A stretch of 58,843 nt of DNA, counting the filler, from Porpidia crustulata (Eukaryota), in assembly GCA_964255105.1 (NCBI GenBank). It is 10 parts of 10 records of this genome, joined end to end, with 100 filler letters (N's around TTAATTAATTAA, not from the genome) between each part and the next. Parts side by side here need not be neighbours in the genome. Positions count along the whole stretch, not along the records: positions 23,640 to 29,434 come from CAXUWE010001698.1; 9 more parts are not named here. The stretch is one strand, 5' to 3'. Shown here in pieces: positions 5,921-33,725 of this stretch. The notes under the pieces are model-generated. The model saw only the letters and a program-made list of their open reading frames with translations. It was not told the origin of the DNA and searched no databases. Each line of letters starts with the position of its first letter. The first letter of the stretch is position 1. A program made the translations under genes and the position numbers.

Positions 5921-8900
5921 TTACCTTTCCTTCGCCGTAGACGTAGCTGAGGAGGAAGACGCAGAGGATGACGGTGACCTGGTATGATTAGTGAGGGTAT
6001 GCGTTTTGTAAAGAGTGGTACATACCATGTCCCATTGAGGGAAGATGAGGCTGTAAATTGTCAGCATATGTCTCCGGGCAGTGGTTGTCAATAAGTCACT
6101 TACACAAAAGTGTGATCAATGATATCCTGTGGATCAGTGTATCCGCCATAAAACGCACTGAACAGGACAAGTGCCGGGATCTGAAGCAGACAGACTTGCA
6201 GCGCGTAAGCTGATCCAATCTCCATTGAAAGCGCAATATTGCCGTTCATGGCAAATGAGATGGCGTTCTGCATATCTACTATTAGCTAGGAAGTGAAAAA
6301 TTGACTACACGGGCTTACCAAAAACTCTGTGGTATTGGGCACTAGAGCAAATAGGGTGATGCCCAGAAACTTCTCATCGATGTCTACACTTTCCAAGACC
6401 ACGTCCACGGTATTCACCAAGATCTCAGCAATCACGGCATAGAGTAGCGTGGCACCGAGTAGGATGACAGAACTCTTTAGCCTACTCCAATTGGGAGCAT
6501 CATGGCCTCCACTTTCGCCTTGTATGACCGTCCCAGCCATGGTGCCCTCGTCATTTGCTTCATGTAATGTTGCACTGCCAGGAACAGTAGTATGACGACT
6601 GTGATGAGCAGCGGTTCGAGCATTTATTGAGGTCTTACGAGGTGCTGCTGTTGCATCTCTCGCCGCCACGGCTGCGGCAGTAGCAGCCATCTCAGCGACT
6701 TGGCGGACCAGATTAACATTATCTTCCTCTGAGAGACCGGCGACGTGGATACTTCTTTGACTAGCGTTGTCGGCAACAGCAGTGCTTTCGCCTCCCCTAC
6801 TTTTTGGTGGGACAAGATGAGGTAGTTGTGGTGATTGCTCTCGCTGGGCATTCTGAGACATCGATGGCGGTCGTGAACCTTCTGAGTTGCGAGGGTTTAG
6901 TCCTACTTGGTTCAAGGATTGATCCAGGATGCGTTTATAGAGATGGGTGTCCCTGATTTCGTTGCGACTAATGGATCCCTTGATACTGCCATTACTCTTT
7001 TGCTTCGGAGCTGCGCTTTGGAAAGCTTGAGCTGTCTGGTGATTCATGCTGCTACTTTGCCCTGGAGGCAATTGAGCCTTCTTTTCGTCTAACTCAGTAT
7101 TCCATATGACTGCTGCATGCGTTCTCAAGGTGAACCATAATCCAATAACGTAGGATAGGAATAGCAGAACCGCAGCAAACCAGCAATATGGTCGGACTGC
7201 TTCCAGGAAAAAGCGGTCATTGACTGCAGGAACTTGAGAGAAGTAGCATCGTCGACAGTCACCGTCTGTAGGATCCGTGATGATGCAAGAATGGCAATTA
7301 AGTTCGTGCTGAAAGTAATGTCAGTGTCTGAAGGATGTTACCTCCCCAGGGAGACTTACACTTCCATAGATCTGATAGAACAATGTAGGTCCAAATGCAG
7401 CTATGACAGCAAACAAAAGCATGGTAGAAGTCACACCAGCGGATTTGACATTGAATCGTTGAGTTTTGCGTTTGATGGCTCCGAAACACATGGAGAGACC
7501 TGGCAAGAACAAGATACCGGCAAAGATGCTCCCAATAATGCTGCCTTCAACCAATTGACCTTTTCCTTGATTTAATGCTACACAATACAGGAAAACTTCG
7601 ACGACGGTGGAGAAGAATGCATTGATTGCCGCGCCGAGTCCCATGGATGACTGAGCAGATATTGAAGCCACTGCTTGACCAATGAAATAGGCCAACGGAA
7701 TGATAGAGAAAAGCGCCAATGCAAATACAAGGCCAGGGTGGACAAGCCAGATTTCCAGACCAAGGGCTACGCCTAGTACCCAATAGTCGAAGATCACAAA
7801 CAGAACTACGACGATCAGATTGATGAGAAAGATGTTAGTCCCATCAATGGTATACTTCCAATACTTGGATCCAACAGCACGGTATGTGCAGAGCAGAACC
7901 GAGGAAGAAGGTGATGAAGATCCTCCACGCGAGTAGGCGCTATCGGAATGGAATGATAAAGCCAAGGGATGCCGGCGCAAATGGTAGAAAAGTAATAGAT
8001 TTACCTTTCCCATCGGAATCCAAAATACCAGGAACCAACATATTCCGGAGGCTGCGAGTAATAGCGGAGCGATCAAGAAGTAGAAAAATATGAAGTAAAT
8101 GACGCGGCCAAAGTTCCATTGTCCGCGGCCAAAGAACCTCCTTCTCTTGCGTGGACCATCTGGGTTGCGTTCTCCACCTCTTCTTGTTCGTCCGAGAAGG
8201 CTGTCATTCTCGTCCGCATCATCTACACTGTCTCTGCGCCGGCCAATGATAGATCGAGATGTCAGAGGACCGAAGAAAAGACGGCCATCTTCTATGTCCC
8301 CATTCTGCCACTGCTCATATTCGCTAATGCTGCGACCTTCGCCTTCGTCTTCTTCCGCATATGCTTCGTCCTTCTCGAGTTTCACAAATTGACCGAAAGG
8401 GTAGAGGATGTACCAAGCAAGACCCAACAATAATCTGCCATAGTCTGAAGCGCCTGGCGCAAAGCCTAGGAGAAAACATGCGACGCCTCCTAAGGCGGCA
8501 GCAGTGGCAAGCCACCAGCCAAAGAGAAAGGTCCATAAGATATTAAATATCCACAAAAACTTACTCACTCTACCTCCAGGCGAGGAATGTATGTCGCCTT
8601 CTGCAGTCTTCTCTACAGATCTTTGCTTCTTGTAAAGCGCAGGCTTCCAAATTCTTATACCGAACGGGTGGGTCTCATTGATAGCTTGCTGTCGGTCTCT
8701 TAGAGTGAAGCTTTCGGCATCGCTCAAGTCGGCGTCATCATCTTCGCCATCCGCATCAGCCTGCACAGTGTCATCACCAGATGTCTCGGGAGCACTTTGA
8801 GAATCCGGAGAAGGTTGAGCCGCTACTTGTTCTTGCTCTGCCTCATGTTCGTCTTCGCCTCGTGAATCCACCCGTGGAAGAGTAGCGGGTGCAGCTGTAG

Positions 8901-26082: not shown

Positions 26083-28885
26083 TCAACGAATCACATCCTT
26101 ACCTTCCCTCTCAATCCCTTCCAGCGCTTCAAGAATATCACTGCCCCCCAAAAGCCCAAGGTTACCCGCCGTGCTCTTCCTCGCCCCACTCCACACCTCA
26201 TGGAACTTGACGCTCTCATCAGAGCACGCGACAACAATACACCCCTCCTCCGCCGTCCTACCCCACCACCTCTCGCCCTCCTTGACCTGTCTACCCATCT
26301 CATTGGGACCACCGGGATACGGGATCGCCAACAAGGCCCTCATCTCGCTGGCCCACGGGATGGCGACGACTTGCCTGCATTCGGGCCACGAAAAGACCGC
26401 GATGCGGTACGGGTGTTCCGGTTGAGCGTAGCCGAAGGTAGCAGCGATTTCGCGCCGGCTGGTGGACCAGATGAGTGAGGTCACTTGGGCTTGGACGTTG
26501 ATCGTGGCGAGACGGGCGCCGGAGAAGGTATGATAGAAGTGAATGGCTCGGTCGTTTGAGCCGCCTCCTGTGGCGATGAGGCCACGCTGCCAGGGACAGA
26601 AGGCGATTGCTTTTATGGCGGCACTGTGAAGCCATTTATGTTTCTGGCGCCCTTCGCTCACTATAATGGTATCTTGTTGGCCAGGTGTGGAGCGAGTCTG
26701 AGGAACAACGATGGCGGGTAAGGGGGCAATATTGTGAGTCCTTTGGAAGTTGTGCTTCCAACGCCACTCGTCTCCGAGGATACTCGTGATCTTCTTATCA
26801 GAGGTTTTGTTACGAGAAACTTTTGGTAAGCCGAAATCAGTGATGAGCTCTGCTAAAGGATCCCTCTGCTTTGGGGTAAGACTTTGCAGACTCTTGGGTG
26901 GTGTAAGGACATCCTTGACTTCAAAAAGGCAGCAAGCATTGTCATTTGCCCCTGTCGCAAAGTGTTCCCCATCAGGCGACCAAGCAAGTCCACAAATTTG
27001 TTGGGTATGCACAGAAATCTTTGCAATCAGTGTCATGGCTCCGGGCCACCCATGAATATCGACAGCACGATTGTTCAGCCATTCAATAGAGTAGTAATGA
27101 ATGTTTCCAGCCTCATCCCCCACCAGCAATTCTTCGACTACTACTGTTGAGTTCAATCGCTCGGACTGCCTTCGAGTACCCACAGGCTTGAAAGCAACGC
27201 ATGCGATAGCGCTGGGCTGACGACACTGGAATCTGGCGTCATCATCAAGCAGACTCCATAGACTTATTTGGCCGTCATTTCTCCCAATGGCAAGTATACT
27301 ATGCCCACCTTCTGTAGAAGAAAACGACAAAGAAGTTACGTAAGTATGGCGATGAGTAGATTCCTCCATTCGAGGATATTGAACGCCAAAAGACTCGGAC
27401 CAAAGGTATACTCGATTGCTAAGCCCGACGGCGAGCGTTCGAGAAGTGTGGCAATACGCCAGAACGGAGCAGTAATAGTCGTCTCGAAGCTGAGGCGCAT
27501 CGAGAACTGTGCTCCAACATCAGCACTGACCTCGAATTGAGCGATGGAGTTCACTCATCTGAAGGGCGTTGTTGGAACGGCGCGAGGTTCATCTTTAGGC
27601 CCCTTCTTTACCCCTGGGGAAATCCAGATTAGTCAACATACATTGAGAAATGACGACTCGCCGCCAGTATAATGGAAAACAAGCAAGCACATTTCTACTT
27701 ACATGGTGGTGTACCTTCTTGAACCCATGTCCCATAATCCCATCGGCTCCGTCCACCTATGGTTTTATATTTCCGCCCCGTTGCAATAGAATCCGAGCCA
27801 ATGTATCGTACTTGCTCGGGAGAGCTAGATATCTCCATCATTCTGCTAGTTTGATCAATCTCCAACGCCATCGCAAGCCTTCCTTCCAAACGTTCTAGGT
27901 CTTGGTCCGGTGTCTCGCCTTCCAGAAAGCGTGACGTATACATCGGCGCATTGGTACCACTACCAATCAGTCTACCACGTCCATTCGATACGCCCTGAAT
28001 GGGACCACTTGGCAAAACGGCCGCAGTACCGCCGACGTTCCATACAGCTCCTGCACTACTTTGTCGATTCTGAATCGTCAAAGGACTTCGGAGTAGGCCA
28101 AGGACGTTCGAGCCACTCATTGAACGTGATCGGGATTGCATTTCTTGTCTATTATCATTCCTGGACATCACTCTCGTACCTTCTCTCCGACGCGTCGGGC
28201 TGTGGAAAGGATCTAGGGTAGCCAAATTGCGACGCAGCAGTCTCTCCACCTCCGACAAATCTTTCGGCGATTTGCTGGTGTGGAAAGTATTGGACAGTGA
28301 CTGCGACACATAACGACGCGGAATATAACGATCTGGAGATGCTGGAGGAGTAAGAAATCTTGCTTCAGCACTTATGCAACGCCGCTTTGGACTTTGCGCG
28401 CCTCCGTGGTGATCTTGAGAGCTGGAACTAATAACAGAGGTAGGTGAAGGCTTGGCCGGGAATGGAAACCTATCAAATCCGATTTTCCTATCTTGGAAGG
28501 GTGTTTGTGTTGTGCATGATTTTATAGCCGGGTAGATGCCGGCATCTGGGGTTGGAGAGCTAAAACCCGGAAAGTCACTGGCTTGACCAGTTTCACTGTC
28601 TGATACAGGCGATAGTGGAAGTCTGGAAGTCGGAAAGTAGTGCTCTACATTAGTTTCCAGAGTCGGTATATCAGCCTCATCGGAATCTGAGGCGGGTGGA
28701 GATGGGATGCCCCTTATGAACGAGTGCTGCGAATGGTCTGTGAAATTCCTTCTCCGGCTACCGGCAGCAAATGCATCGCTGGATAAGAATGATGAGTCTT
28801 CAGAGTAGCGATGGGAAAGATCGACAAATGAACGCTTTGTGGACGAGCGAAAATCCTGTACAGACGCGGATGCCAAACGAGGCAT
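26083..28885 (-). CDS. AMA1: Cdc20/Fizzy-family WD40 APC/C activator, meiosis-specific Ama1-like
   Basis: C-box DRYIP, VPTTPFR|VLDAPQLRDDYYCS, HTQQICGLAWS, AIKAIAFCPW, ATGGGSNDR and C-terminal IR tail. Exons 28885-27703, 27613-27559 and 27508-26083. Confidence 0.88.
27509..27558 (-). other. Predicted AT-AC intron (U2-type signals) in AMA1
   Basis: TTC AG|atgagt...gctgat gttggagcac|A GTT CTC GAT GCG is the only junction found that gives PFRVLDAP. Unspliced, TGA follows immediately in frame. Confidence 0.75.
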
Positions 28886-32441: not shown

Positions 32442-33165
32442 ATTACAGTCCCTCGTTGATATCTCCGGAACCCGTTCTCGACTGCTTTCGTTTGGAGGGT
32501 GTGAATCAGATTGGATTGCGTGAAGATTAATGACGCATTGAAGTCGCTCTGATAGACTTGAAATTACCTGCGTAGGCCACTTACGATATAAACTTAGCAA
32601 AATCTTGGATTTTTCTATAGTAGTTAGAGCATTAAAGCTACCCAACAGTCTTTACAATGTAACCATTATCCCTAGATTCTCAAATGCAAGATTACCTAAT
32701 CTAGTCTAAAGACATCAACGAGACTTCCAGTGTCATCACTTCCATTCAATAAGCCGAAAATGTGCTCCAAATCAGCTGGCTGTCTTTTCGTTTGAAAGTA
32801 TGACGTCGAGCGTAGACTCCTTAATTATGGCAGGCATATGATAGCATAGAGCGTCTTCTTCATCCAGAAGGAAACAAGCTCGGTCGGATGGCTAAGTAAG
32901 GAAACCACTCTGTCTAACAATCTGTCAGTGCTACATAAGGACTTTATCATGCAAAGCCTGAGGCATGTTAAGAGACTAGGGAATAAGACAACAGGGAAAG
33001 ACAGATTGCTTTAGGGAGAGAAGCTTATCGGGAGGGGAGCAAACAAGGGCTGAAGTAACCACTTGGATATCTAAGGATTTAACAGAAATCAAATATCACT
33101 GCATAGGGACAGCGAGCATAAATGACTCACAGTCGAGACAACGACAAAAAAACCGCGTCATGCGT

Positions 33166-33725
33166 TTACAATTTCGATTTCTGAATGTGCACTATCTTCT
33201 CGAGCCCCCGCCTAATGTCCTCGGCCATACCACTAGCAAGAGGCCGATTCGTCTCCCGATCGACAAAAACATGCGTAACGCCCCCAACAGCCCTCACGTC
33301 CTCTTCCCCGCGCTCAAACAAACCGATCTCATACGTCGCACTGGAATTACCAAGCTTGTTGACCCGGAGGGCGAGATCAAGCATCGCAGGGAATGCCACG
33401 GAACCGAAATAGTCGCATTCCGAATGGACGACTAGGCCGATTTGCTTGGATCGGGGGGGTTGGAGGCCGCAGTGCGATATCAGGTAGGCGTTAATTATGG
33501 AGTCGAATCTTCGTCGAGCTTAGTCGGCGGCTCCTTGTGATATTGATTTTACGCACAGAAAAGAGTAGACGCTGTTGTTCATGTGATTGTACATGTCGTT
33601 GTCCGACCTGTGAGACGTTATGATTGGAGCATACTGCCACCGAGAAGAATGTACCATCTAGTTCGGTATTCGAGATGAAAGCCATAGTCACTGCGTTTCC
33701 GCTGCTCTGAACCTGGCTTTGGCAT
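33166..33725 (-). CDS. Hotdog-fold (4HBT-like) acyl-CoA thioesterase
   Basis: Spliced product MPKPG...YRTRW|SDNDMYNHMNNSVYSFL|FDSIINAYL...LRVNKLGNSSATYE. Two GT-AG introns. Confidence 0.88.

Follow-up and report, generated by a model that had tools for sequence, protein, structure and literature searches.

A 50-nt stretch on the minus strand of the window (27558-27509) is, judging from sequence comparison, very likely a genuine spliceosomal AT-AC intron of the U2 type (type II), situated in a lichen-forming ascomycete's gene for an APC/C co-activator that is probably of the Ama1 type. The window is the whole 58,843-nt stretch of Porpidia crustulata DNA that was analysed. Below, we describe the gene and the frame logic around the intron, then its conservation among orthologues, and then how well other readings of the locus agree with the same evidence.

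The gene consists of three exons (Table 1), which together encode 887 amino acids without an internal stop. The frame upstream of exon 1 is closed by a stop at 28930-28928, and 28885 is the first ATG that follows. Pfam, protein and structure searches were done with the exon 3 product, of whose 474 residues they covered 470. The exon 3 product matched the CDC20/Fizzy WD40 family (PF24807) with 203.6 bits, where the cut-off is 200, and its best relatives among solved structures were Cdc20, Slp1 and Cdh1 (E 3e-36 to 1e-32). We take D-R-Y-I-P-R in exon 1 to be a C-box by its consensus, and the terminal Ile-Arg to be an IR tail. The gene thus encodes a WD40 protein of the Cdc20/Fizzy family that has both a C-box and an IR tail; the family agrees with what had been read from the sequence. 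It is probably of the Ama1 type, as suggested by a source label and by the behaviour of the subfamily. A relative at 66% identity (P0090) is labelled 'meiosis-specific APC/C activator protein AMA1' in its source. Only 266 of the 16819 representative hits in the protein search reached E 1e-30, and the Cdc20 and Cdh1 structures reached only about E 1e-36, which fits a separate, third subfamily.

Table 1. Exons, introns and sequence motifs of the candidate AMA1 gene, with positions along the window.
Feature	Position	Strand	Remarks
Exon 1	27703..28885	-	ATG at 28885; disordered N-terminal region; phase 1 end; no internal stop in joined model
C-box-like motif D-R-Y-I-P-R (exon 1)	28316..28333	-	seen in translation
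Intron 1, canonical, 89 nt	27614..27702	-	GTAAGT...CTAAT...CAG; equivalent intron GT..AG in 9/9 Lecanoromycete lineages
Exon 2, 55-nt micro-exon	27559..27613	-	conserved ...RAVPTTPF(R); 55 nt in 9/9 Lecanoromycete lineages; ends ...CCC TTC AG
Intron 2, AT-AC (putative), 50 nt, phase 2	27509..27558	-	interrupts the Arg codon of PFR
Intron 2, 5' splice site ATGAGT	27553..27558	-	U2-type hexamer GTGAGT with A at +1
Intron 2, branch-site motif CTGAT	27519..27523	-	presumed branch A at 27520, 11 nt from intron end
Intron 2, 3' terminal AC	27509..27510	-	preceded by a pyrimidine (C, 27511)
AG two bases past AC	27507..27508	-	acceptor for the in-frame alternative that skips exon 2; used by gene predictors
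Exon 3, WD40 propeller	26083..27508	-	VLDAP... to IR tail; one open frame; 474 aa; stop at 26085-26083
C-terminal Ile-Arg (IR tail)	26086..26091	-	from translation

The frame leaves little choice in where the second intron can lie. Among all cuts of 30-120 nt, PFRVLDAP resulted only from 27558-27509 (AT..AC), after which exon 3 starts with A GTT CTC GAT GCG CCT, and from an equivalent cut one base further on, 27557-27508 (TG..CA). The protein does not distinguish between these two cuts, and we prefer AT..AC because it is the sole reading that is invariant across lineages. The splice sites around the junction comprise 38 GT/GC donors and 19 AG acceptors. In a full enumeration of these sites, the motif was kept by none of the seven canonical second introns with an open frame and by none of the ten single-intron solutions, which upholds the earlier claim that no GT or GC donor preserves it. 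All canonical splice alternatives were rejected, since they either rely on poor donors or remove conserved residues. If intron 2 is retained, a TGA follows directly after PFR, as had also been read from the sequence. By itself, the AT-AC signal pattern occurs at chance frequency in the window: AT[AG]NGT..CTRAY..YAC was found six times, compared to 4.5 times in shuffles, whereas its GT-AG version was found 15 times, compared to 4.6. The significance of the intron thus comes from its position, the frame and its conservation in orthologues.

We fetched 39 orthologous metagenome loci, three of which (L027, L032 and L038) stop short of the junction, leaving 36 that were readable. An intron is present at the same position and in the same phase in 24 of them, and its ends are AT and AC in all 24 and GT and AG in none. 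The sequence-only reading had described an AT-AC intron with U2-type signals between PFR and VLDAP; the sequence in the window is as described, and the orthologues bear it out. In the other 12 loci there is no intron, and PFR is fused straight to V/I-L-D/E-A-P. The 24 introns represent 10 distinct sequences of 48-53 nt, to which the window adds an eleventh. Six separate assemblies of one close relative (L001-L005 and L020) concur on the AT..AC intron. Three-exon models were open in 9/9 Lecanoromycete lineages, with lengths of 890-939 aa in eight and of 641 aa in L013, where the model is ended by the contig edge.

Within the intron, conservation is confined to the splicing signals. The bases +1A, +2T, +5G, +6T, -2A and -1C were each found in 10/10 distinct lineages, +3 is always a purine (A in six, G in four), and -3 is a pyrimidine in all ten, giving a 5' site of the form A-T-R-N-G-T throughout. 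The hexamers ATGAGT, ATACGT, ATATGT, ATAAGT and ATAGGT have their GT-type counterparts in intron 1 of the same genes. Exon 2 ends with AG in all 11 distinct sequences, and a CTRAY-type branch motif (TTGAC in L010/L011) places the branch A, as judged by eye, 10-11 nt from the 3' end in 11/11. The intron body (+7 to -17) has a mean identity of 0.512 across the ten lineages, versus 0.509 in shuffles. The last eight codons of exon 2 show 157 synonymous-only versus 44 amino-acid-changing codon differences (36 pairs), and from this comparison exon 2 is under purifying selection.

One of the intron carriers, L031, groups with Dothideomycetes, albeit on a long branch (1.74) and with a row that was cut at an in-frame stop. 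This grouping suggests that the AT-AC intron is probably old and that its precise losses (L012, L017-L019, Teloschistaceae) came later. The stop in this distant orthologue is a TAG at a conserved Trp codon; a hairpin around it was no better than those of shuffled sequences (z -0.83).

From the signals, the frame logic and the conservation described above, we infer how the intron would be spliced, by which spliceosome and with what effect. The major spliceosome would recognise intron 2, with U1 and U6 reading the near-consensus 5' site (exon-end AG, then A-T-R-N-G-T) and U2 reading the CTRAY branch site, which lies 10-11 nt before the end of the intron. During exon ligation, a non-Watson-Crick pair would form between the first A and the last C that replaces the usual G-G, so that AC rather than the AG two bases further on would be used. 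Changing either end alone should block this second step, which would lock the AT-AC ends by epistasis. The AT-AC state would then be older than the split of Lecanoromycetes from the Dothideomycete-like lineage, and lost solely by precise intron loss. Unspliced RNA would meet the TGA after PFR and yield no WD40 domain, so the efficiency of intron 2 splicing may set the amount of Ama1.

The sequence-only reading went further and proposed the intron as a splicing switch for meiosis. Here, the AT-AC intron would be real and would in addition act as a stage-specific gate: splicing would be poor in vegetative hyphae and efficient solely during the sexual stage, which would restrict Ama1 to asci. Budding yeast, with its Mer1-dependent AMA1 intron, and Fusarium, with the editing-dependent stop codon in FgAMA1, would offer parallels. 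AMA1 is indeed reported to be gated post-transcriptionally in these two other lineages, by splicing in yeast (PMC11585973) and by editing in Fusarium (PMC10776026). The latter source describes FgAMA1 as PSC33, a pseudogene-like gene that needs restorative A-to-I editing, and also notes the meiosis-specific yeast intron; the editing of a premature stop, which the sequence-only reading had mentioned, is thus on record. Retention of intron 2 leads at once to a stop, by which splicing efficiency would control the protein, and an A as the first base is expected to weaken both U1 pairing and the second step (inferred from what PMC5029451 and PMC11585973 report). The weak ends were kept in all 24 carriers.

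However, no support for the regulatory part of the proposal emerged. The Mer1-type enhancer AYACCCUY occurred in 0/10 introns and the intron body is unconserved, so that a site at which a regulator might bind is not apparent. The epistatic lock accounts for the conserved ends just as well. As exon ligation should fail when only one end has changed towards GT-AG, long conservation of AT-AC is expected without any regulatory role, and the borders of U2-type AT-AC introns in animals are likewise reported to be conserved, from human to pufferfish (PMC1557818). Moreover, the gate would be dispensable, as the intron was precisely lost in several lineages. FgAma1 is itself reported to be active in ascospore morphogenesis, not in meiosis itself (PMC10776026). 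We therefore consider the stage-specific gate unlikely. The same doubt applies to its broadest form, in which AMA1 would have acquired a post-transcriptional lock independently for a third time, next to the Mer1-dependent intron of budding yeast and the editing-dependent stop codon of Sordariomycetes. In this form, an intron deliberately impaired in the second step would keep Ama1 switched off outside the ascus in Lecanoromycetes and Dothideomycetes, and perhaps also in most of the Pezizomycotina.

A second alternative is that exon 2 is truly skipped, by joining the GTAAGT donor at 27702 to the CAG acceptor that ends at 27507, and that AT..AC is a coincidence or a relic. This 196-nt GT-AG cut is in frame, has good canonical signals and yields PPFLDAP, as the sequence-only reading had noted. 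The AG two bases beyond AC is present in the window and in nine of the ten distinct locus sequences. The skip junction is also found in at least nine named NCBI gene models of other fungi (Xylographa, Lambiella, Letrouitia, Agyrium, Heterodermia, Pseudocyphellaria, Lindgomyces, Elsinoe and Aureobasidium). These models appear to skip exon 2 because predictors disallow AT-AC ends, and the expectation that gene predictors would mis-annotate the locus was thus correct. By their gene models without exon 2, Aureobasidium, Elsinoe, Lindgomyces, Sodiomyces and Orbilia/Drechslerella are suspected carriers of the intron. The GT-AG skip could be a real isoform, even the major one. However, exon 2 is kept at the level of length, frame and residues despite many synonymous changes, unlike a permanently skipped segment, and AT and AC are invariant around a randomised body. 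In L021 and L025, which come from two separate assemblies, the border reads AC-G-GTA, such that the nearby CAG acceptor is absent but AC is retained. Together these observations make true skipping of exon 2 highly unlikely.

Proteins from other fungi agree with the AT-AC cut. Intron-less orthologues encode exactly the junction that it foretells, and of the 85 representative proteins in which the motif is seen, 62 have PF[RK]-VLDAP uninterrupted. Among 120 proteins, 29 continue beyond the Val on its upstream side but have no contiguous PFR; six of these are spliced NCBI models and 23 are read-through calls. All 23 read-through calls have Thr (ACN) before the Val, as predicted by the ...AC|N GTN border. 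A search with exon 1 for longer proteins gave seven matches: two contiguous (Xylona and Penicillium), three with the exon skip, one unspliced read-through and one without the motif. A search with the junction region gave 85 matches, 33 of them new, and 28 of these 33 were contiguous. The new contiguous matches that carry a name (some rows have none) all lie outside the groups in which DNA shows the intron. Among the matches to these two queries there was no transcript-derived protein from an intron-bearing species that is joined across the junction, which is no evidence against splicing.

The termini also raise the question of whether this is a U12-type intron, spliced by the minor spliceosome. 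Besides the AT-AC ends themselves, the short and constant distance from the branch to the 3' end resembles such introns, for which 10-11 nt is also typical. However, of the U12-type signals (5' splice site ATATCCTT, branch site TCCTTAAC), ATATCC at the 5' site and CCTTRAY at the branch occurred in 0/10 lineages, and +3 and +4 vary like those of U2-type fungal donors. An Rfam search of the 58.8-kb window gave no matches. U12 splicing is moreover reported to be missing from Ascomycota and Pezizomycotina (PMC2846911). A present-day U12-type intron is therefore extremely unlikely here. In a bold, related reading, intron 2 may be the fossil of an AT-AC intron that was once U12-type and became U2-type at the loss of the minor spliceosome in Dikarya.

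An assembly or sequencing error, or a decaying pseudogene, has a negligible chance of being the explanation: the same architecture is found in independent assemblies of nine other lineages, and exon 3 (474 aa) and exon 1 (~400 aa) are open and conserved, even if the sole run that matches the sequence may be the source sample. This run, X1 (type unknown), was the one match in a run search for the gene, with no RNA run among the matches; its independently assembled Logan contig (5759 nt) shows no differences over the gene. Two runs of other organisms from the same study, X2 and X3, compared with the gene at 80% likeness, covered short WD40 patches only and nothing at the junction.

Two further routes by which the intron might be removed or rescued were rejected. 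Non-spliceosomal splicing of the HAC1 type does not fit the spliceosomal 5' hexamer and branch site found in every lineage. A-to-I editing of the +1 A was dismissed by reasoning, as a G-like first base and a last C are an incompatible pair and no edit converts the final C to G.

If the AT-AC intron is spliced, it would be a naturally occurring member of the U2-type AT-AC class that is obligatory and deeply conserved, in organisms that lack the minor spliceosome. It would be an uncommon substrate on which to study how exon ligation matches the first base of an intron to the last, and end-replacement experiments are feasible in tractable relatives. A third unusual requirement at the RNA level in AMA1 would make the trade-off hypothesis of PMC10776026, as stated there, testable in another lineage. 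On a practical level, public models of this gene from many lichen fungi and from other Pezizomycotina lack exon 2 (55 nt) and with it the conserved PF(R/K) segment.

Our literature search found no conserved AT-AC intron in AMA1, and the closest known systems each share part of what is described here. Two of them concern the same gene family. The Mer1-dependent meiotic intron of S. cerevisiae AMA1/SPO70 also has a suboptimal 5' site and has to be removed to obtain the activator, but it is reported to carry the Mer1-bound enhancer (PMC11585973) that the introns studied here do not have. Fusarium graminearum FgAMA1/PSC33 has a premature UAG, an in-frame stop that likewise has to be removed at the RNA level; this is reported to occur by codon editing and not by splicing (PMC10776026), whereas the window gene has no in-frame stop once spliced.

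The other systems share the intron type. U2-type AT-AC introns are present in animals but are very rare, with 24 reported among 608,562 U2-type introns of five species (PMC1557818). The human SCN4A/SCN5A examples (Sheth et al. 2006, PMC1557818) are described with the same AT and AC termini, an otherwise U2-type 5' site and borders that are long conserved. The putative intron in the window differs in being fungal, in its length of 48-53 nt among orthologues, in its CTRAY branch close to the end and in lying in a Cdc20-family gene. Also within Pezizomycotina without U12 splicing, AT-AC made up 69 of 14305 junctions in RNA-seq of Trichoderma longibrachiatum (PMC4324775), and U2-type AT-AC introns were hypothesised for fungal xylanase genes (PMC1557818); as reported, these are catalogue-level counts or hypotheses and concern other genes. 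In yeast, an engineered intron with the first G changed to A and the last G to C (Parker and Siliciano 1993, cited in PMC5029451 and PMC11585973) is reported to be spliced in the same AT-AC manner, with an A-C interaction standing in for G-G. The nested RPL30 AT-AC intron of S. cerevisiae (Gould et al. 2016, PMC5029451) likewise belongs to an ascomycete without a minor spliceosome and uses A-C for G-G, but it is reported as a side product of 1-2% with a 5' site unlike that of U2-type AT-AC introns. Unlike the RPL30 intron, the intron in the window would be obligatory for the protein, and it is conserved across genera.

The gene consists of three exons on the minus strand, which join into a single frame of 887 aa. 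Exon 3 contains the CDC20/Fizzy WD40 domain (PF24807, 203.6 bits against a cut-off of 200), and among solved structures it is closest to Cdc20, Slp1 and Cdh1, with E-values of only 3e-36 to 1e-32. Among named sequences, exon 3 is closest to those of lichen-forming Lecanoromycetes (Teloschistaceae, Xylographa, Lambiella, Psora and Hypocenomyce, 64–69% identity), and a 66% identical relative is labelled as the meiosis-specific APC/C activator AMA1 by one source. Just 266 of the 16819 protein matches in a representative library were found at E 1e-30, which fits a third subfamily, distinct from Cdc20 and Cdh1. As PF(R/K) immediately precedes V-L-D-A-P in 62 of the 85 subfamily representatives that show the motif, the proposed exon 2–exon 3 junction is the norm in this family.

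Predicted structure of the probable Ama1-type gene in window positions
Feature	Position	Strand	Details
Exon 1	28885-27703	minus	Open from first ATG; contains D-R-Y-I-P-R
Intron 1	27702-27614	minus	Canonical GTAAGT...CTAAT...CAG
Exon 2	27613-27559	minus	55 nt; 3' end ...CCC TTC AG
Intron 2	27558-27509	minus	50 nt; starts ATGAGT, CTGAT at 27523-27519, ends AC
Exon 3	27508-26083	minus	Starts A GTT CTC GAT GCG CCT; ends Ile-Arg-stop
Stop codon	26085-26083	minus	

The sequence-only reading had proposed that intron 2 runs from AT to AC; this observation is confirmed and much strengthened by frame logic, conservation among orthologues and the coding nature of exon 2. When any intron ends were allowed over lengths of 30–120 nt, only two cuts produced the conserved PFR-VLDAP junction: the AT..AC cut and its equivalent shifted by one base (TG..CA). 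Retention of intron 2 leads to a TGA immediately after PFR. Pairing each GT or GC (38 sites) with each AG (19 sites) near the junction yielded 10 single-intron and 7 second-intron solutions with open frames, every one of which deletes conserved residues. The donors of these canonical solutions are poor, except in exon 2 skips from the GTAAGT donor at 27702. Strings with AT-type signals were not enriched above chance in the window (6 versus 4.5 in shuffles), and GT-type strings numbered 15 versus 4.6. The five further AT..CTRAY..YAC strings, which are at chance level, lie at 6929-6986 and 33160-33230 on the plus strand and at 45284-45236, 31762-31685 and 23518-23460 on the minus strand. An Rfam scan of window 1-58843 found no family at its gathering score.

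A scan of metagenome contigs identified 39 orthologous loci, 36 of which were readable, as L027, L032 and L038 stop short of the junction. An intron was present at the identical place and phase in 24 of these 36 loci, and PFR was fused straight to the next exon in the other 12. All 24 introns start with AT and end with AC, and none is GT..AG; they represent 10 distinct sequences of 48–53 nt. For comparison between lineages, we used the window and nine non-redundant loci, omitting L011 as a near-duplicate of L010. Positions +1A, +2T, +5G, +6T, -2A and -1C were each identical in 10/10 lineages, with a purine at +3 and a pyrimidine at -3 throughout, whereas the intron body (+7 to -17) had a mean pairwise identity of 0.512, versus 0.509 (sd 0.013) in shuffles. 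Selection has therefore preserved the ends, while the rest of the intron has been randomised. The 5' hexamers (ATGAGT, ATACGT, ATATGT, ATAAGT and ATAGGT) correspond, apart from the A at +1, to the usual GTRNGT donors of fungi; in the same genes, the intron 1 donors are GTAAGT, GTGAGT or GTAGGC. A CTRAY-type branch motif, read by eye, places the branch A 10–11 nt from the 3' end in 11/11 distinct sequences; in L021 the script took a nearer TTGAC, and the upstream CTGAC gives 11. For intron 1 of these genes, the corresponding distance, also read by eye, is ~15–16 nt. The short distance in the AT-AC introns may be a constraint of the AC 3' end, or a relic.

Exon 2 is 55 nt long in 9/9 Lecanoromycete lineages, and its last eight codons contain 157 synonymous-only versus 44 amino-acid-changing differences over 36 pairwise comparisons. 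On this sequence comparison, exon 2 is coding. When the AT-AC cut is applied, three-exon models stay open in all nine lineages, with lengths of 890–939 aa in eight and 641 aa in L013, where the contig ends. The upstream intron of the L031 locus was not resolved under the assumption of a 55-nt exon 2. In the window and in 9/10 distinct locus sequences, A-G directly follows the AC, so that skipping exon 2 to that AG stays in frame. L021 and L025 (two assemblies) have AC-G-G and lack a nearby AG, and the AC is still kept.

Public protein models bear traces of this arrangement. Among 120 relative proteins, 29 have sequence upstream of the Val but no contiguous PFR. Unspliced ORF calls account for 23 of these, all with Thr (ACN) just before Val, as expected from an ...AC|N GTN border (bar, splice border). 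In the other six, which are NCBI gene models, exon 1 is joined directly to L/I/F/V-LDAP. The same exon-skip signature occurs in named models from Agyrium, Lindgomyces, Elsinoe, Heterodermia, Pseudocyphellaria and Aureobasidium, and the PF(R/K) segment is also missing in models from Saccharata, Pseudovirgaria, Sarea, Chrysothrix, Orbilia/Drechslerella and Sodiomyces; both sets, known here from protein models alone, are suspected carriers. Eukaryotic models with the jump that lack PF(R/K) are P0024, P0050, P0055, P0056, P0065, P0086, P0122, P0125, P0206, P0278, P0280 and P0283, from Lecanoromycetes and Dothideomycetes; PF(R/K) is further missing in P0160, P0196, P0144 and P0123 (Orbiliomycetes, Sordariomycetes, Arthoniomycetes and Sarea). 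The pattern suggests that the AT-AC intron leads to systematic mis-annotation. Two protein searches, with exon-1 and junction-region queries, returned no junction-joined protein from an intron-bearing species. One unspliced ORF call, P0075, contains exon 2 (...AVPATPFR) and 18 extra residues before VLDAP. The intron in this species seems to be 54 nt long, in frame and stop-free, starting A-TAT-GT, and its retention would add 18 residues rather than truncate the protein.

A tree was built from 30 rows; besides the window, it comprised 15 representatives of the loci and 14 proteins, named or unnamed, with duplicate loci omitted. Teloschistaceae without the intron are nested within a clade in which all others are carriers, and L031 groups with a Dothideomycete, though on a long branch. 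On the simplest reading, the AT-AC intron is old and was precisely lost several times. At each site of loss, the remaining junction is exactly the one expected from AT-AC splicing, which is what loss via a spliced RNA copy would give. Precise losses were seen at L012:2990-3003, at L017-L019:2990-3003 and in P0008, P0013, P0015 and P0039 (Lecanoromycetes including Teloschistaceae); the junction left is AGG GTT or AGA GTT, exactly as AT-AC splicing predicts.

How could such an intron be spliced? According to excerpts of the respective sources, U12 splicing is absent from Ascomycota and Pezizomycotina (PMC2846911), yeast splices an engineered AT-AC intron (PMC5029451), and exon ligation involves an interaction between the first and last bases of the intron, in which an A-C pair can substitute for G-G (PMC11585973). 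We therefore class intron 2 with the U2-type AT-AC introns, which are rare but already known. U12 5' sites, U12 branch sites and Mer1 enhancers were each found in 0/10 introns. Excerpts of PMC1557818 describe 24 U2-type AT-AC introns with conserved borders in five animal and plant genomes and mention that others have been hypothesised in fungal xylanase genes; Trichoderma RNA-seq had AT-AC in 69/14305 junctions (PMC4324775, in part), and no endogenous yeast case was known before a 1–2% RPL30 isoform, as far as excerpts of PMC5029451 state. The requirement for A-C at ligation would lead to the choice of AC over the AG two bases downstream. The ends would stay fixed because every single step toward GT-AG would be a dead end. 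Searches on AT-AC/AU-AC introns in fungi and on AMA1 introns, covering literature outside subscription journals, found no earlier description of intron 2 of AMA1; as far as this literature shows, its conservation and the widespread mis-annotation are new.

The sequence-only reading further suggested that intron 2 restricts Ama1 to meiosis through stage-specific splicing. Its statement on Fusarium was borne out, as FgAMA1 is PSC33 and requires restorative editing, and the authors of that work regard the meiosis-specific AMA1 intron of yeast as having solved the same trade-off independently (PMC10776026, in part). With this gene RNA-gated by splicing in yeast and by editing in Fusarium, a third RNA-level requirement is suggestive. 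However, no regulator site is conserved in the intron body, the intron has disappeared from several lineages, and an epistatic lock on its ends would explain their conservation. We thus regard a meiotic splicing switch as a hypothesis that is unlikely to be correct. The same excerpts report six independent origins in Sordariomycetes of stop codons at the FgAMA1 editing site, and a role of FgAma1 in ascospore morphogenesis, not meiosis.

L031, a distant AMA1-type orthologue and itself an AT-AC carrier, has an in-frame TAG (L031:3850-3852) at a Trp conserved in all other sequences (SLIW-STSRRE region), past which the frame runs on to the IR tail. The TAG is preceded by T and lies within a small stem-loop; the hairpin around it was no better than shuffles (z -0.83). 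L031 grouped with a Dothideomycete (support 99/97), although its branch is long (1.74) and its row was cut at the in-frame stop; its best local matches are Dothideomycetes at ~50% identity. The TAG looks like the editing-restored UAG of FgAMA1 but could equally be the mark of a pseudogene or an error, and the closest relatives of L031, Dothideomycetes, lie outside the lineage with the reported FgAMA1-type editing system.
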